Counted from the stretch's first letter, positions 28,820 through 35,578 are shown. The stretch is DNA of 64,000 nt from Candidatus Bathyarchaeia archaeon (GCA_050012255.1 JBEKHN010000007.1:45005-109004); one strand, 5' to 3'. Program-made: numbers and translations. Notes: a model not told the origin generated them from the sequence alone.

Positions 28820-31507
28820 ATGACACAGAAACACCTGGAGGATTTTCCGCCCAAGGAACAGAGACCTTCGACTGAAAAGAAAGTTGACTCTGGGCCATTG
28901 GCAATCGGCGAGCTTGGAATGGGAGAAAGGAGAAAGCGCGTCTTTCCCCCGCTTGCTCCTGAGAACTTACCATGCTCATACTTTGTCTCAGCCACCTATG
29001 ACGGGAGGGCTGGCAAGGCAGTAATCAAACTCTATGAACCAATTTCGGGCCAGATCTACTTCTGGTATGACAACACAGGCCACCAACCGTACTGTCTCAC
29101 AAACCTTTCGCAGTATGAGCTTGAAAAAATCAGCCGTGTAATTCAACACCCAGGCTTCGACCGTTTTGAGATTGTGGAAAAATTTGACCCGCTGCTAGAC
29201 AGGAAGGTGAAGGTCACGAAAATAGTGACCAAAGATCCGTTGGCTATCGGCGGCCGACCTACGGGATGTATTAGGGACATAATTCCAGAGGATTTCCCAA
29301 ATGTCTCGGACTCGCCGGTTGCATCGCAAGATATCAAAGTCTGGGAGTCAACGATAAAGTACTACCAATCCTACATTTACGACCGGCAACTTCTGCCTGG
29401 AATGATTTACGAGGTAAGAGACTGTAACCTCGTCCTGAAAAGGCTGGAAGAAGCCGACAAGACCGTGGACCAGATTCGAGGAACCTTCAAGGACGCGACT
29501 GATGAAGAGTTGGAATTCATCGAAGAATGGGCAAGACTGCTGGAATACCCTGCTCCCAAGTTTCGCCGCGTGGCCCTCGACATAGAAGTGTTGGCCCCAA
29601 TCCCTACAAGAGTACCTGACCCCCGCGAAGCAGCTTGCCCGATTATATGTGTTTCACTCTACAGTTCAGATGGACTAAAGAAAGTCTTGCTCCTGAAACG
29701 CGAAGGAGTCCGCGAGGGAACGGAGCACCTGTCCGCGGATGTGAGGCTTGAAAGTTTTGATTCAGAGGAGAAACTTGTAAGGTCTGTTCTTGACGCGTTG
29801 TGGGACTATCCTTTCGTCCTAACTTTCAACGGGGACGACTTTGACCTGCCATATTTGTTCCACCGCGCGCTGAACCTTGGCATCAGACGAAACGAGATCC
29901 CAATAGAAGTTGGCAAAAGATCCTGCTCGCTGAGTTACGGAGTTCACGTTGACCTGTACAAGTTTTTCTTCAACCGTTCAATTCAGATTTACGCTTTCAA
30001 CAACCGTTACAGGGACGTGACGCTGAATGACATTGGAAAAGCTCTGATCGGACTTGAAAAAGTGCCGCTCGACAAGACTCTAGGCGAGTTAACTTACACC
30101 GATCTTGCCGAGTATTGCCTCAGAGACTCTGAAATCACTTTCAGACTTACAAGTTTTGAAGACGAACTCGTCATGAAGCTGATCCTCGTTCTTGCAAGAA
30201 TCAGCAGCATGCCGATGGAAGACGTGAGTCGACAAGGCGTCTCTCGCTGGATAAGAAACTTTCTGCAACGGGAGCACCGCAAGAGGAACATGCTCATCCC
30301 GAATCCCATAGACATACTCGCAACGAAGGGCAAAACCGCAACGAAAGCAATCATAAAGGGCAAGAAATACAAGGGAGCAATAGTCGTCGAGCCTGTGCCA
30401 GGAGTGTACTTCAACGTCGCTGTCATGGATTTTCCAAGCCTGTACCCGTCAATCATCAAAGTGTGGAACCTAGGCTACCAGTCCATATTGTGTCCACATC
30501 CCGAATGCCGCGGCAACGTCGTTCCAGGCACGCCAAACTGGGTTTGTACCAGGAAACGAGCGTTAGAGAGCCTGTTGATCGGTTCGTTGAGAGATCTGCG
30601 TGTGCAGTGGTACAAGCCTAAGACGAAAGACAAGTCTCTCAGCACAGATTTGAGAAGCTGGTACAACATCACTCAGGGAGCTCTTAAAGTCATCCTGAAC
30701 GCGAGCTACGGAGTCTTCGGAGCTGAAAGCTTTGACCTCTACTGCCCACCAGTGGCTGAGGCAACAGCAGCCATCGGAAGACACTCAATAACACAGATAC
30801 TCAACAAAGCAGAACAGTTGAGCATCCAAGTGCTCTACGGAGACACGGACAGCCTCTTCCTGAAAAACCCTTCAAAACAGCAAACTGAAGAACTGGCACA
30901 CTGGACAGAACACGAACTTAAAATGAGCTTGGACGTTGACAAGGTTTACAGGTACGCAGTTTTCAGCTCCCGCAAAAAGAACTATCTCGGAGTCTTTGAA
31001 GAGGGAACGGTTGACGTCAAGGGGTTGACAGGAAAGAAGAAACACATTCCAATTCTCATCAAGAAAGCCTTCGACAAAATGAAGGACCGCCTCGCACAGG
31101 TCAAAACTCCGACAGATTTTGAAAGGACAAAGAAGAACATCGGCGAAATTGTCCGCGAATGCTACATGCAGTTGAGGAGGCGAGAATGGGAGAACCTCAA
31201 CGAATTAGCGTTCAACGTGGTCCTAGGCGAAGAAATCGGACACTACACAAAGACAACTCCCCAACACGTTAAAGCCGCAAAGATTCTACAGGAGAATGGT
31301 GCGGAGCTGAGAGCCGGGGACCTCATAAGCTTCGTCAAGACGACCAGGGAGCCACACGTGAAACCAGTTGAGTTGGCGACTAAGAACGAGGTCGACGTTG
31401 ACAAATACGTAGCCTACCTGCATTCGACGTTTGACCAAGTCCTAGATGCGTTGGGTCTGGACTTTGACGAAATAATAGGACTGACGAAACTGGAGAGATT
31501 CATGTAA
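28820..31507 (+). CDS. polB1: Family B DNA polymerase, PolB1 type
   Basis: DIEV exo I, FNGDDFDLPY, DFPSLYPS, KVILNASYG, YGDTDS; N-terminal WYDNTGHQPY typical of PolB1. Confidence 0.95.
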   Translation: MTQKHLEDFPPKEQRPSTEKKVDSGPLAIGELGMGERRKRVFPPLAPENLPCSYFVSATYDGRAGKAVIKLYEPISGQIYFWYDNTGHQPYCLTNLSQYELEKISRVIQHPGFDRFEIVEKFDPLLDRKVKVTKIVTKDPLAIGGRPTGCIRDIIPEDFPNVSDSPVASQDIKVWESTIKYYQSYIYDRQLLPGMIYEVRDCNLVLKRLEEADKTVDQIRGTFKDATDEELEFIEEWARLLEYPAPKFRRVALDIEVLAPIPTRVPDPREAACPIICVSLYSSDGLKKVLLLKREGVREGTEHLSADVRLESFDSEEKLVRSVLDALWDYPFVLTFNGDDFDLPYLFHRALNLGIRRNEIPIEVGKRSCSLSYGVHVDLYKFFFNRSIQIYAFNNRYRDVTLNDIGKALIGLEKVPLDKTLGELTYTDLAEYCLRDSEITFRLTSFEDELVMKLILVLARISSMPMEDVSRQGVSRWIRNFLQREHRKRNMLIPNPIDILATKGKTATKAIIKGKKYKGAIVVEPVPGVYFNVAVMDFPSLYPSIIKVWNLGYQSILCPHPECRGNVVPGTPNWVCTRKRALESLLIGSLRDLRVQWYKPKTKDKSLSTDLRSWYNITQGALKVILNASYGVFGAESFDLYCPPVAEATAAIGRHSITQILNKAEQLSIQVLYGDTDSLFLKNPSKQQTEELAHWTEHELKMSLDVDKVYRYAVFSSRKKNYLGVFEEGTVDVKGLTGKKKHIPILIKKAFDKMKDRLAQVKTPTDFERTKKNIGEIVRECYMQLRRREWENLNELAFNVVLGEEIGHYTKTTPQHVKAAKILQENGAELRAGDLISFVKTTREPHVKPVELATKNEVDVDKYVAYLHSTFDQVLDALGLDFDEIIGLTKLERFM

Positions 31508-31520
31508 GGCTTTGCAGTCA

Positions 31521-32075
31521 TTAATTCTCTGAAAGCGTTTTCAATCCATGTGATTTCAGTGGTTCAATGATGCTGGGTCTGCTCAGTATTCGCAGAACCG
31601 CGTAACCTATCACTGCGATAGCGACGAGACTGCTGACCAAAAGGCTGATCAGCGTCGTGATCCAAGCTGGCAAGAACGCGAGCTCTGCAGGTTGATAAGG
31701 AAAGGATATCCACAGATACCCGCCCCCAACGATGATTCCTATAGGCGAAGCACCTGCGATGCATGCTAGCAACTTATGCTTCTTCAGTAACAATACGAGG
31801 CTTGCCGCCATAAGATTGGCTAGGGAACCGAAGACTACGTCAATGAACCCTATGGGTCCGAAAACATTAACAACAGCGCATCCGGCAGTGACTCCAATAA
31901 CGACAGGCAATCCTAACAAAGCAGCTAATGCGATCAGAAAGTCTGAGAGCCGCAATTGTATAGGTCCATAGATTGAAGGATTTCCGAAAGGAGAAAACGA
32001 CTGTGCCAAGTTGATCGTGGCGTACAATGCTGCAAAAACGGCTGTCAACGCCAAGTCTCTACTGTCAAATCTTAT
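31521..32075 (-). CDS. queT: QueT family (queuosine/archaeosine-precursor) transporter, ECF S-component; probable ATA start
   Basis: AVFAALY...YGPIQLRLSD...GC...N...D...GSLANL motif. SD GGAGGTGA 4 nt before ATA 32075. ORF-track start is GTG 32126. Confidence 0.8.
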   Translation of the reverse strand: MRFDSRDLALTAVFAALYATINLAQSFSPFGNPSIYGPIQLRLSDFLIALAALLGLPVVIGVTAGCAVVNVFGPIGFIDVVFGSLANLMAASLVLLLKKHKLLACIAGASPIGIIVGGGYLWISFPYQPAELAFLPAWITTLISLLVSSLVAIAVIGYAVLRILSRPSIIEPLKSHGLKTLSEN

Positions 32076-32142
32076 CCTTTCACCTCCTGCGCCGGGATTT
32101 CTATGGCGGAACGGGTGGAGGTCCACTCACCCGCCTTGCACC
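32076..32142 (-). promoter_or_regulatory. Structured 5' leader of queT, candidate riboswitch
   Basis: GGUGCAAGGCGGGUGAGUGGACCUCCACCCGUUCCGCCAUAGAAAUCCCGGCGCAGGAGGUGAAAGG. Hairpins plus ACCUCC complementary to the SD GGAGGU. TATA-like TTTAATAA at 32161-32168. Confidence 0.55.
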
Positions 32143-32284
32143 TAAGAAGACCACAGATGTTTATTAAACATTGCTGAGACTCGCATACTAGCATTCATCG
32201 CATGAGCGTTCAGGATAGAAAATCAGGCTGAGGCCATCAAGCAGACTTCACAAGCAGTCGCCGAAGACCGCATCACAGTATTTG

Positions 32285-32351
32285 CTGCAGAAAAAAACCG
32301 AGGGGGGTAGACGTGTTAGACGAGTAAAAACGCGAAACAGGGAATGTTAAC
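32285..32351. repeat. Dispersed intergenic repeat, degenerate copy D (inverted)
   Basis: Reverse complement GTTAACATTCCCTGTTTCGCGTTTTTACTCGTCTAACACGTCTACCCCCCTCGGTTTTTTTCTGCAG matches the copy A core. Confidence 0.7.
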
Positions 32352-32425
32352 GGATCGATGGAGAAACGCGTAGCAAGAAGTAACCGTGGGACATCAATAA
32401 GCGCCGTGAAAACACGTTTCAAACA

Positions 32426-33301
32426 CTATTTCAACATTAACAATCTGAGAACGAGAGCAACAGAAGTTGACGCTGCGACCAAAAGCGAGACCAGCAACAC
32501 CACCTGCCGCTCGGTCAAGGAACGATGAAACGTGAGAAGGGTGACCAAGCTTCGCCTGTGATCTGAGGACAGCTTTTTCCCATCAAAAGAGACAGCGGCC
32601 TTGGCTCTATAGATGAAGAAAGTCAGCAATATCAACGCAGAATTGAAGATGTAGGGCAGAACAGACACGACCAGGTCCAACTTCAAATCCGATATGACCC
32701 CGAAAGAAGCCAACGTCATCCCTATGGTGAAAGACCCCGTGTTGCCAACGAAGATCTTCCCCTCAAAGTTTAGAGCAGCAAGGATAAGCCACACGACCAG
32801 AGGAACGTAAAGCAATACTCCATTTGACCCTGACATAGCCATCAACCCGATCATAATTATCGCTGGACAGACTGTCTCCAAACCGTTCAACCCGCCCAGC
32901 TGATTCACCGTATTCGTCACTATCGTCACAAGCACCGGAACTATCACAAGGTAGTACCACACTCCGAAGTCGACCGTACCCAACAATGGAATTGCGATAT
33001 ACGTACGAACTAGGGGAGTGTGATACGCGAAGGCAGCAAGAGGCATTGCAGCAACCAGAGGAAGAAACGCTTTGAAACGCCACTTTAGATCTATCCAGTC
33101 ATCCAGCAATCCCATGAAGCCTCCGAACAACACGCACACGGCCAGCGTCAAGGGCGGAGAAACCCCGTTTGAGACTTTGACAATGTCTAAAGAGTACAGG
33201 AGAAACAAGTACACAACGCTGATCAGGACGTAGAAGATACCGAGGCCGTTAGAAACCAAAGGCTTGTTTGGTTTGTGCAGGTCAGGAGCCTTAGGAAACA
33301 A
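32426..33301 (-). CDS. UDP-GlcNAc:dolichol-phosphate GlcNAc-1-P transferase (AglH/Alg7/MraY family)
   Basis: DLHKP, GLLDDW, NTVNQLGGLNGLE, KIFVGNTGS; downstream of aglB. Confidence 0.85.
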   Translation of the reverse strand: MFPKAPDLHKPNKPLVSNGLGIFYVLISVVYLFLLYSLDIVKVSNGVSPPLTLAVCVLFGGFMGLLDDWIDLKWRFKAFLPLVAAMPLAAFAYHTPLVRTYIAIPLLGTVDFGVWYYLVIVPVLVTIVTNTVNQLGGLNGLETVCPAIIMIGLMAMSGSNGVLLYVPLVVWLILAALNFEGKIFVGNTGSFTIGMTLASFGVISDLKLDLVVSVLPYIFNSALILLTFFIYRAKAAVSFDGKKLSSDHRRSLVTLLTFHRSLTERQVVLLVSLLVAASTSVALVLRLLMLK

Positions 33302-33313
33302 GGACGTTCCCCT

Positions 33314-35578
33314 TTAAGCATTCGGATAATCTTGGTAGTATTTTTGCCAGTCGATCTTGTAGAGACACACAAGTGGAACAAGCCCGCTGTAACTGCTCTG
33401 TGAGTCACTGGGCGTCAAAGTCTCCCCTGAGAAGAACTCTTCCTTGAAGTATATGGGCTGCGTAACGTTGGCCGCATCAGGGTCTGTAACGCCGTTGACC
33501 TGACACCAACGGTCTTTGCCCCAACTCATAAGCTCATAAACCGTTGAGTTTAACCCAACATTGTTCCACTGCCATGCGTTGGTCGTGTTGCTGAATGAAC
33601 CGAAGGAAGTCTCATTCTGCCAAGAAGAGGCCTTGTCAATAAAATTGTTATCTATGAATCGCTGCTGCGCGTTTCCGGAGATCTTTGCCATCCAAGTCCA
33701 TTTTCCGTTGTCGCCGCCCGCCCAGTCAACCCAGCCTCCTTGATAATTAGCAGTGACGAACACGAGTATGTATTCCGCTCCGTACTGCTTCAACATATTC
33801 ATCGAATAAGTCTCGTTTGCCATAAAAACGAACCCAGCATTTTCTATCTGTGTAGTGTTAATCGTGGCGTTGTCCGTAAGCGTGGTGACATTTCCTAGGA
33901 TGCTTAGCCAGTACCCATAGTCCCACCAACTGACCACAACAGTAGAAGAGCTATGGAAATCATTCACGTATTTCAGCATGTCGAACCACTCTGTCACAGG
34001 CCGATTGGGCGCTACCGACATACTGCCTCCTGTGATCGTAACTGGCGTGTAAGCTTGTCTGTAGACTATCGGCACCCCGCCAGATTGCGGCGAAAATGCC
34101 AGGTTTGTCATCAAAACTAAGAAAATCAGGAAAATGGCAGCCCCGCTGAACTCTTTTCCCACATGCTCCAGCGCTTTCCTTTTTCCAGTCAATCTCAGCG
34201 GTTCCTTCAACAGCGTCACAAACGGTTTGGACAGACTCACTATTCCGATGGCTGCCACAAGAGCGAACGCCGGGGCCAGAATGACCATTACACGCACCAT
34301 GGATGCAGCAAAGTAGACGGATGTTAAAGCGAAGAGTAGCATGAAAAGATTTTTGGTGGTGAGGTTTCTTGCAATGAAGAATAGACCCACGAGGAAGAAG
34401 AGTATCGCTATGCCAAGGTCGTAGTATATTGAACCCCAAGTAGACATTCTATGTTCAGCCACAGACTCTATTAGAGGGTTAGTTCCCCGCAGAAGTGGAT
34501 TAATGACAACCCAGAACTTTGCCCCTATGGCTCCTAAGAAGCCCGTCACCGTGAGCACGATGAAGCTGCCGATTATCCCGGCCACGAAGGCTACGATAAA
34601 CATGAACTTTTCTCTAGCAGAAGTCAAATTGTTCACGATCTCGTTCAGACAAAGGAGAACAAAGACTCCTGCAACGGGCAAGATAGCAGAGGAAACAACG
34701 AAAGCGGGTCCGACTTCAGTTCGGGTGCTTATGGCAAAGAGTAAACTCGGCCCAAAGGTCAAACCGTACACTAAGAAAAGACGTCTCGAGTATCTCTTGA
34801 CCAGAAGTAAAACGAAAACGAAGAGGGCGGCCAAATCAATTATATAGTATGATGCGCCCCATCCGAGAACGAAGTATGTTAAGACAGCAGCCGACCCAAG
34901 TGAGTAGCCAACCGTTGAATTGATCGGCCTTTCTTCTTCAACGGCTCTGAGGAAAAAAAGAATGAAAGCTGGAAGTGCAAAGATGCCAACGTTTTCGGTC
35001 GTAAAGAAGCCCAGCGTAATCTTCGTGATAACGGCTGGGCTTATCGCCAAGAAAAGTGCTGCAAGCAAGCCGACAGGTTTTCCCCCTAAGTCTTTTCCGA
35101 GGAAGTAGAGCGCAAAGGCTCCAAGGGCAACCATTAATGGAGGGATCATCGCAAGAAAGGCCATCAAGTCGATGTTGAAGCCCAGGAACCTAACGATGTC
35201 GTAGGAAACAGCCGCAACAAATACCAATGCTGGATAGGAGTTCCCCATGTTTATTCCGCCTGGGAACCAGCGCTGCGTGTCAACCCATTGCGTAGGCCAG
35301 TAGGGCGATAGCAGACCTTGCTCCGTCATTCGTTTCACCAGACTGTACTGGTAGTACGGGTCAAATTCTGAAAGATGGATTGCGCCCGCCTGTATCTCCC
35401 AACGCAGTGGCAGTACGCGTATGGTGAATGCCAAGAAAACGATGAGCAGCAAGGCTGAAGACGTCAGGATTGAACTGTGGTTCACTTTGAGTCTTAGTTT
35501 TCCCAGACTCTTTATGCCGTTGACAAAACTCTCCTTGGATAGGACGCTGCTGAGCTTCACTTTCGGTTCATCTCTCAC
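33314..35578 (-). CDS. aglB: Oligosaccharyltransferase AglB/STT3
   Basis: EFDPYY, SVAEH, WWDYGYW, DNAT motifs; multi-TM N-terminus. Confidence 0.96.
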   Translation of the reverse strand: MRDEPKVKLSSVLSKESFVNGIKSLGKLRLKVNHSSILTSSALLLIVFLAFTIRVLPLRWEIQAGAIHLSEFDPYYQYSLVKRMTEQGLLSPYWPTQWVDTQRWFPGGINMGNSYPALVFVAAVSYDIVRFLGFNIDLMAFLAMIPPLMVALGAFALYFLGKDLGGKPVGLLAALFLAISPAVITKITLGFFTTENVGIFALPAFILFFLRAVEEERPINSTVGYSLGSAAVLTYFVLGWGASYYIIDLAALFVFVLLLVKRYSRRLFLVYGLTFGPSLLFAISTRTEVGPAFVVSSAILPVAGVFVLLCLNEIVNNLTSAREKFMFIVAFVAGIIGSFIVLTVTGFLGAIGAKFWVVINPLLRGTNPLIESVAEHRMSTWGSIYYDLGIAILFFLVGLFFIARNLTTKNLFMLLFALTSVYFAASMVRVMVILAPAFALVAAIGIVSLSKPFVTLLKEPLRLTGKRKALEHVGKEFSGAAIFLIFLVLMTNLAFSPQSGGVPIVYRQAYTPVTITGGSMSVAPNRPVTEWFDMLKYVNDFHSSSTVVVSWWDYGYWLSILGNVTTLTDNATINTTQIENAGFVFMANETYSMNMLKQYGAEYILVFVTANYQGGWVDWAGGDNGKWTWMAKISGNAQQRFIDNNFIDKASSWQNETSFGSFSNTTNAWQWNNVGLNSTVYELMSWGKDRWCQVNGVTDPDAANVTQPIYFKEEFFSGETLTPSDSQSSYSGLVPLVCLYKIDWQKYYQDYPNA

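Follow-up and report, generated by a model that had tools for sequence, protein, structure and literature searches.

A conserved leader RNA upstream of queT in Bathyarchaeia as a candidate translational riboswitch for a 7-deazaguanine precursor

The queT gene of a Candidatus Bathyarchaeia archaeon (GCA_050012255.1, JBEKHN010000007.1:45005-109004; this whole stretch of 64,000 nucleotides (nt) is called the window below) raises the question of whether its GC-rich 5' leader forms a regulatory RNA and, if so, which structure it adopts and which compound it senses. The coding sequence occupies 31521..32075 on the minus strand, on which all features of the leader also lie, with 184 codons from a probable ATA start plus a stop, and its product passes the Pfam gathering score of PF06177 QueT (86.8–87.2 bits, cut-off 33.7). 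An earlier note on this DNA had proposed a translational off-switch for a 7-deazaguanine precursor, in which a hairpin loop masks the Shine-Dalgarno (SD) sequence. We put at about two in three the probability that the leader of the queT mRNA (32138-32073) represents an undescribed class of cis-regulatory RNA, a translational off riboswitch for preQ0 or a close 7-deazaguanine, a reading drawn from sequence comparison. The observation made in the earlier note was partly confirmed and its interpretation partly supported: the leader is a conserved, non-coding RNA in which an anti-SD pairs with the SD as a pseudoknot, while the helices had to be redrawn.

Homologues of QueT were searched in 41 related genomes and found in 36. 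From 30 queT homologue loci, chosen by protein homology only, the 200 nt located 5' of the conserved N-terminus were cut out, and the same block of about 65 nt, kept nearly letter for letter, was present in 29 of them, even where the QueT proteins share only 32–45% identity; at the 30th locus, the block sits before another QueT copy. A pattern scan with one genome per species returned at least 120 stretches, and 151 loci were gathered, 143 of which contain the full motif, corresponding to 130 distinct sequences. The full-motif loci were used to build a covariance model, R1. Two alignments were analyzed: A1, with 130 pattern-selected sequences aligned by MAFFT, and A2, with 85 hits selected without the pattern and aligned to R1. 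The motif copy in the window (32135-32082) scores 74.6 bits with R1 (E = 5e-17 in its own genome). The comparison of orthologous leaders, which the earlier note had set as the check on its proposal, came out in its favor, as the leaders are conserved and their helices covary.

The outer stem of the motif, P1, consists of a closing pair and GCGG/CCGC, 5–6 base pairs (bp) in all, and is formed in the window by GGCGG (32131..32135) and CCGCC (32105..32109). In A2, the closing pair is GC in 62 sequences, AU in 14, GU in two, and UA in two, the innermost pair is GC in 78 and CG in four, and a change from C-G to U-G is seen at one pair; the tolerance of G·U pairs fits an RNA transcribed from this strand. 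P1 is also predicted by RNAalifold unaided. It is the pairing that the earlier note had offered as an alternative to its main stem: the pairing itself covaries, and its rank is that of the conserved stem rather than of an alternative. The inner hairpin, P2 (32115..32126), has the consensus GYGG/CCRC and comprises GUGG (32126-32123), the loop ACCU (32122-32119), and CCAC (32118-32115) in the window. Its second pair varies among UA (60), CG (8), and GC (5) in A2, and is A-U in the divergent leaders L192 and L196 and G-C in L187; the stem has four or five base pairs, and the fifth arises with matching changes on both strands. Together, P1 and P2 are paired in 93.1% of the cells of A2, an alignment that was fitted to both stems and hence is biased towards them. 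Their two-sided changes amount to 55, against 20.0±3.2 in shuffles, a value reached by 0 of 500, which overstates the significance because related sequences are not independent; the same holds for the other shuffle counts reported here. The covariation score of the two stems is 0.201, and that of slid controls is at most 0.057.

The unpaired positions are nearly invariant. The 5' junction between P1 and P2 (32127..32130) reads GUGA in 109 of the 130 distinct leaders, GUAG in 16, and GUAA in five, and the 3' junction (32110..32114) reads CCGUU in 123 and CCGAU in seven; these invariant columns of A1 are partly fixed by the search pattern, and the 5' junction is conserved too in the set selected without it. 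Divergent leaders found by the model carry CUGUU, CCGCU, or CUGCU as the 3' junction. Downstream of P1, an A-rich linker (AUAGAAA, 32104-32098) leads to a conserved block (UCCCGG, 32097-32092), with the overall consensus AUAnAAA-(C/U/A)CCCGG; the block is CCCCGG in 91, UCCCGG in 24, ACCCGG in 12, and CCACGG in three of the 130. In the window, CGCA separates this block from the SD. As partners of CCCCGG, the GUGGG strand of P2 and the CCG in the 3' junction were considered and rejected, as no consistent co-variation was seen by eye and none by mutual information. A kink-turn or L7Ae site was likewise rejected, from sequence alone, because tandem G·A pairs are missing from the 3' side of the junctions.

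The strings on which the earlier note had built its fold all occur on the minus strand of the window, namely the TATA-like TTTAATAA, CGGGUG (32133-32128), CACCCG (32117-32112), CGCC...GGCG, ACCUCC (32122-32117), complementary to GGAGGU (32087-32082), GGCGG (32135-32131), and CCGCC (32109-32105). Its arrangement of them, a stem CGGGUG/CACCCG with the anti-SD in the loop, a hairpin CGCC-N11-GGCG just before the SD, and a topology resembling that of preQ1-II, in which the loop pairs with the SD across the inserted hairpin, is very unlikely to be the fold that selection maintains. Both stems do exist in the window, CGGGUG/CACCCG can pair in 94–97% of the cells, and it is the sole inner stem available in L185 and L195, so that it may occur as a transient or minor alternative conformer. 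However, this stem lacks two-sided changes altogether, does not outperform shuffles (500/500), shares three nucleotides with the covarying P1, and is broken both in the four leaders with a C-G innermost P1 pair and where the 3' junction contains CUG (L188, L189, and L194). The CGCC/GGCG hairpin fares no better: it is restricted to the window and its close kin, 79% of its cells are paired, one pair is unpaired in 71 of 130 sequences, and no two-sided change was found. As the inserted hairpin is not conserved, the preQ1-II topology was not retained.

The masking of the SD, in contrast, is upheld by the comparison. The P2 loop and 3' strand (CCUCC) form a pseudoknot with the SD (GGAGG). In the window, the anti-SD ACCUCC (32117..32122), which comprises the P2 loop and the two bases that follow it on the P2 3' strand, is complementary to the SD GGAGGU (32082..32087), the 3' strand of the pseudoknot, which is followed by GAAAGG. 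We take the CCUCC to be a copy of the anti-SD at the 3' end of 16S rRNA. The pseudoknot is absent from R1, and A2 is therefore not fitted to it. Loop and tail change in step: 70 leaders combine CCUCC and GGAGG, 37 have CCUCCC and GGGAGG, eight have CUCCC and GGGAG(G), and nine show mixed combinations. The helix formed by each loop with its own tail has a mean length of 6.43 bp, compared with 6.09±0.06 for swapped partners (0/200). In A2, two pairs of pseudoknot columns alternate, one between U-A (33) and C-G (26), the other among C-G (35), U-A (24), and U-G (19); the pseudoknot and P1 together give 111 two-sided changes, against 48.5±7.8 in shuffles (0/500), and the pairs with the highest mutual information are columns of P1, P2, and the pseudoknot. 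In divergent leaders, the whole helix has been swapped, giving UCCGAC:GUCGGA (L193), CCGAC:GUCGG (L195), CCCUCC:GGAGGG (L197), GCCCCC:GGGGGC (L198), and CACCUC:GAGGUG (L201, L203, and L186). The covariation as a whole shows that selection preserves P1, P2, and the anti-SD:SD pseudoknot. The last two have 2–3 nt in common and hence are mutually exclusive.

Is the conserved stretch transcribed as a leader, or is it part of the coding sequence? A peak of TATA-like AT-rich sequence lies 28–35 nt upstream of P1 in the 129 homologous leaders analyzed, where A+T reaches 88–95% at positions -32 to -29 from P1, and an A-rich stretch is found further upstream. When seven or more of the eight positions of a strict TATA consensus were required to match, a box was found in 33 of the 129, 24 of them 22–29 nt from P1. 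The equivalent in the window is TTTAATAA (32168-32161), followed by 25 nt and then P1. From the usual archaeal spacing between TATA box and start, transcription is predicted to begin at about 32137-32140, 1–5 nt before P1, and the motif would therefore form the very 5' end of the mRNA. In two metatranscriptome runs, the contigs of which carry no start-site or expression-level information, a 645-nt contig from a relative, with 57 differences, spans queT and the leader up to 32125, and short pieces match the conserved core only.

It could be argued that queT starts at GTG 32126, so that the conservation reflects an N-terminal peptide. The frame is indeed open from this codon, both in the window and in the two relatives closest to it, and the window has no canonical start at the usual distance 3' of the SD. 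This explanation is nevertheless extremely improbable. With respect to the start codon, the motif occurs in every phase, with 36, 45, and 49 of the 130 distinct leaders in phases 0, 1, and 2 (5, 12, and 13 in the 30 loci chosen by protein homology), and in-frame stops fall inside the motif in many homologues, so that the open frame from GTG 32126 is accidental in this GC-rich sequence. Furthermore, the length of the P2 loop changes by non-multiples of three, the motif also heads queE-like and queC genes, and the PF06177 profile begins only at residue 25 of the open reading frame (ORF) that opens with GTG 32126. The start at this codon, which the earlier note had named as a result that would overturn its proposal, is thereby excluded.

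In the homologues, queT starts with ATG, GTG, or TTG 5–9 nt 3' of the SD. This position is occupied by ATA in the window, as in its two closest relatives, and no canonical in-frame start exists in the window between GTG 32126 and TTG 32054. The latter (32054-32052) is an alternative in-frame start that would remove the conserved (R/K)FDSRD residues. The alignment of leaders makes ATA (32073..32075) the probable start codon. By a simple heuristic, a near-cognate codon was found at the aligned start in 20 of the 130 distinct leaders (ATA in seven, CTG in six, ACG in four, and ATT in three), and some pairs of leaders differ in this codon alone (L078 and L128; L094 and L013). These cases hint at frequent near-cognate initiation or else at a downstream start.

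Several points weigh against the riboswitch reading, in addition to the limits of the alignments and shuffles given above. Folding of the 86-nt leader is no more stable than that of its shuffles (z = -0.44; 60 of 200 at least as stable), and a single sequence such as the window copy thus gives no evidence of structure. RNAalifold recovered nothing beyond P1. P2 is weak or absent in L185 and L195, and the leaders of one clade (L184, L190, and L191) have a U·C mismatch in it; about a fifth of the cells are unpaired at two pseudoknot columns of A2, which reflects register shifts at least in part. Mutual information on A2 gave no covarying partner for the strongly conserved CCCCGG block. The start of queT in the window would be the near-cognate ATA, and the switch itself is inferred, like the rest of the mechanism, from nucleotide sequence.

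The motif is widespread in the class to which the window belongs. R1 matches were found in 91 of its 151 sampled genomes (70 of the 94 high-quality ones). A phylum-wide sample of 151 genomes yielded 27 with a match; 15 of these 27 lie outside the class and are concentrated in three families (9/15, 3/3, and 2/2). Among the matches listed, the pattern scan found almost exclusively metagenome-assembled genomes (MAGs) of Bathyarchaeia or Bathyarchaeota, with a few labelled Methanomethylicota or Nitrososphaerota and one labelled Promethearchaeati. Five pattern matches in GC-rich bacterial records were rejected as chance, since the 3' half of the motif is missing. The whole motif with queT does occur in three contigs of MAGs labelled as bacterial, L096 (Acidiferrales), L098 (Patescibacteria), and L099 (Krumholzibacteriaceae). 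These contigs are probably mis-binned, as is suggested for L096 by its leader, which matches that of an archaeal relative (L003). Apart from these three, the motif was found in archaeal records only among the matches listed in the genome scan.

The genes behind the motif point to its ligand. In a census of 141 loci, which were not de-duplicated, the first gene encodes QueT in 133 (131 above the cut-off and two cut by contig ends), a radical S-adenosylmethionine (SAM) protein in four, QueC, above the cut-off, in one, and a protein without family in three. For the radical-SAM proteins, QueE models take the first five places among the NCBIfam hits, with scores below the curated cut-offs. Among the eight loci without QueT in first place, QueC is encoded by the next ORF in L050, L061, L088, L122, and L150, and in L072 the order is QueC and then QueT; the next gene in L046 encodes a thiamine pyrophosphate (TPP) enzyme, and L144 stops at a contig end. 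No purine or other-pathway gene was found as the first gene among the 141 loci. The predicted regulon is thus confined to making or importing 7-deazaguanines, and its gene set, queT, queE-like, and queC, indicates a 7-deazaguanine ligand, as the earlier note had supposed. The same conserved RNA might instead sense a ligand outside this group, such as guanine, another purine, or a cofactor. The ligand is assigned from gene context, and the junctions resemble no known preQ1 pocket, with UU or AU before the P1 3' strand rather than the UC or AC described for class I in a 2024 review (PMC11625349). Nevertheless, we regard such a ligand as quite unlikely, since the only genes controlled are queT, queE-like, and queC.

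Some of these loci hold further candidates for the same pathway. In L088 (5243-7412, plus strand), a 483-residue glutamine amidotransferase–QueC fusion follows the motif-led QueE-like gene and is itself followed by a DUF2848 protein. Between the motif and QueC, L061 (5727-6557, minus strand) and L122 (5816-6541, plus strand) encode proteins of 277 and 242 residues with no Pfam or NCBIfam family, the first segments of which are weakly QueT-like in a single BLASTP comparison (E = 0.036 and 0.017). These two proteins are candidate 7-deazaguanine transporters.

The genome to which the window belongs, 98.5% complete, contains exactly two R1 matches, the window copy and a second copy of 80 bits (G000:C1:32829-32895, minus strand; locus L211, about 2607-2680). 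The second copy heads a queT2–queC pair, in which queC starts a few bases after the queT2 stop. The genome also encodes a 540-residue tRNA-guanine transglycosylase (TGT)-family protein. Within this genome, no match to QueF or to QueD/PTPS was found, and QueE is represented by a weak radical-SAM match only (27.6 bits). Judging from this gene content, the organism may depend on importing 7-carboxy-7-deazaguanine (CDG) or preQ0 via its two QueT proteins. In the established archaeosine pathway, preQ0 is the product where QueF is missing; as the TGT-family enzyme and QueC are present and QueF was not detected, preQ0 is the expected end product here.

A mechanism can be proposed on this basis. Without ligand, P2 would hold the anti-SD, leaving the SD free and queT translated. 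The invariant unpaired GUGA, CCGUU, A-rich linker, and CCCCGG may form a ligand pocket at the junction of P1 and the pseudoknot; binding of the ligand would stabilize the fold of P1 plus pseudoknot, bury the SD, and switch translation off. In other motif-bearing operons, translation of queC and queE would be switched off together with that of queT. The off polarity is suggested by the logic of end-product control over uptake and synthesis genes. According to computed energies, P1 with P2 amounts to -14.4 kcal/mol, P1 alone to -8.1 kcal/mol, and the anti-SD:SD duplex to -11.4 kcal/mol, so that the two states are near enough for a ligand to tip the balance; the P2 hairpin alone amounts to -3.5 kcal/mol and contributes about -6 kcal/mol in context.

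The same masking could operate without a small molecule, if the leader were a target of TGT or another pathway protein, a thermosensor, or a constitutive attenuator that hides the SD. Such an operator requires no ligand, since a 16S-like anti-SD suffices for masking, while ligand binding is a prediction, and a TGT-family enzyme is encoded in the genome itself. We consider it unlikely because about 25 unpaired positions are nearly invariant across the class and beyond, which is typical of a small-molecule pocket and unneeded for masking, and because no conserved protein gene accompanies the motif besides the pathway genes. A translational riboswitch for preQ0 or a close 7-deazaguanine remains the preferred reading. 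If it is validated, the motif would provide a new RNA fold for 7-deazaguanine recognition and indicate that SD-dependent translational riboswitching works in uncultured archaea. It would also serve as a marker for preQ0 salvage genes, with two membrane proteins without family already standing behind it, and could be used in archaeal genetics as a small part under ligand control. With a length of only about 65–70 nt and hundreds of natural variants, the RNA is easily tested.

As for the surroundings of the leader, two genes lie upstream in the same orientation, one for a family 4 glycosyltransferase (32426-33301) and one for a 754-residue membrane protein (33314-35578) that contains WWDYGYW, presumably the AglB/STT3 oligosaccharyltransferase motif. 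A family B DNA polymerase gene on the plus strand (28820-31507) converges on the 3' end of queT. Inside the glycosyltransferase gene, 32609-32682 on the plus strand gives a weak match to the sR30 C/D-box small RNA (13.9 bits, where the gathering score is 38; E = 1.2), most likely by chance.

Compared with known systems, the motif stands apart. No Rfam 15 family, including preQ1-I, II, and III, was matched at E<=10 by the window region 31500-32700, the 106-nt leader, or 15 divergent homologous loci, so that the covariance models bear out the earlier remark that the leader has no primary-sequence match to the preQ1 classes. To our knowledge, metabolite riboswitches are rare in archaea, and, in the literature searched, no riboswitch for queuosine or archaeosine precursors was found described in archaea. 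Nor was a published description of the motif found in the sources available in part to this search, which did not extend to the supplementary lists of metagenome and archaeal screens (‘thousands’ of unpublished or supplementary candidates by one group), where it may already appear. In the 2024 review on the preQ1 family, only bacterial phyla are treated, and the word ‘archaea’ is absent (PMC11625349).

One of the nearest parallels is preQ1-II (RF01054), the COG4708/queT motif of Streptococcaceae and Lactobacillales. According to the review, it also lies upstream of queT and acts at the level of translation only, and the SD is one strand of its pseudoknot, with the partner in an upstream hairpin region (PMC11625349). 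The same text reports preQ1-II from Bacillota only, in contrast to the new motif, which is archaeal (PMC11625349). Moreover, the HLout pseudoknot of RF01054 has a conserved hairpin, P4, inserted between aptamer and SD strand, while the archaeal motif has no conserved hairpin between anti-SD and SD; mutual information on A2 finds no helix in this segment. The conserved junction sequences of the archaeal motif are also unlike those of preQ1-II.

The preQ1-I family (RF00522; types I–III) also controls the preQ0/preQ1 synthesis genes queC, queD, queE, and queF. As described in the 2024 review, it shares with the archaeal motif a short P1 of 5 bp followed by an A-rich strand (AUAnAAA in the archaeal case), an H-type pseudoknot, and, in type III, an SD that joins the pseudoknot pairing (PMC11625349). 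In that review, the specificity cytosine belongs to a UC in type I, or an AC in types II and III, that stands before the 3' strand of P1 (PMC11625349). The archaeal P1 3' strand, in contrast, is preceded by UU in 123 of 130 leaders and AU in seven, and by CU in three divergent leaders detected by the model (L189, L197, and L198). The archaeal loop, which includes the hairpin P2, has roughly double the length, and the conserved CCCCGG block is extra. In preQ1-III (RF02680), anti-SD and SD pair besides the aptamer helices, and this use of an anti-SD is the only common feature; preQ1-III has an HLout pseudoknot, a length of about 100 nt, and an expression platform far from the pocket. The archaeal anti-SD lies inside the conserved core of about 65 nt.

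The TPP and fluoride/crcB riboswitches of archaea are, like the new motif, cis-acting leader RNAs in archaeal mRNAs. They are archaeal members of bacterially defined classes, whereas the new motif has no bacterial counterpart in Rfam 15. With a conserved, structured, and covarying 5' leader located between promoter and start codon, and with genes of one metabolic pathway (queT, queE-like, and queC only) behind it, the motif has the general features of a riboswitch. With slightly less assurance than for the leader itself, we favor the broader view that it founds a fourth 7-deazaguanine riboswitch class, structurally unrelated to the other three and the first native to archaea, which probably senses preQ0 rather than preQ1. 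In this class, a mimic of the 16S 3' end would toggle between P2 and the SD pseudoknot to control salvage (queT) and synthesis (queE and queC) in Bathyarchaeia, in lineages resembling Methanomethylicia, and in one or more Asgard-labelled MAGs. With its helices redrawn from those of the earlier note, the motif is best regarded as a structurally new class within a known kind of regulator.

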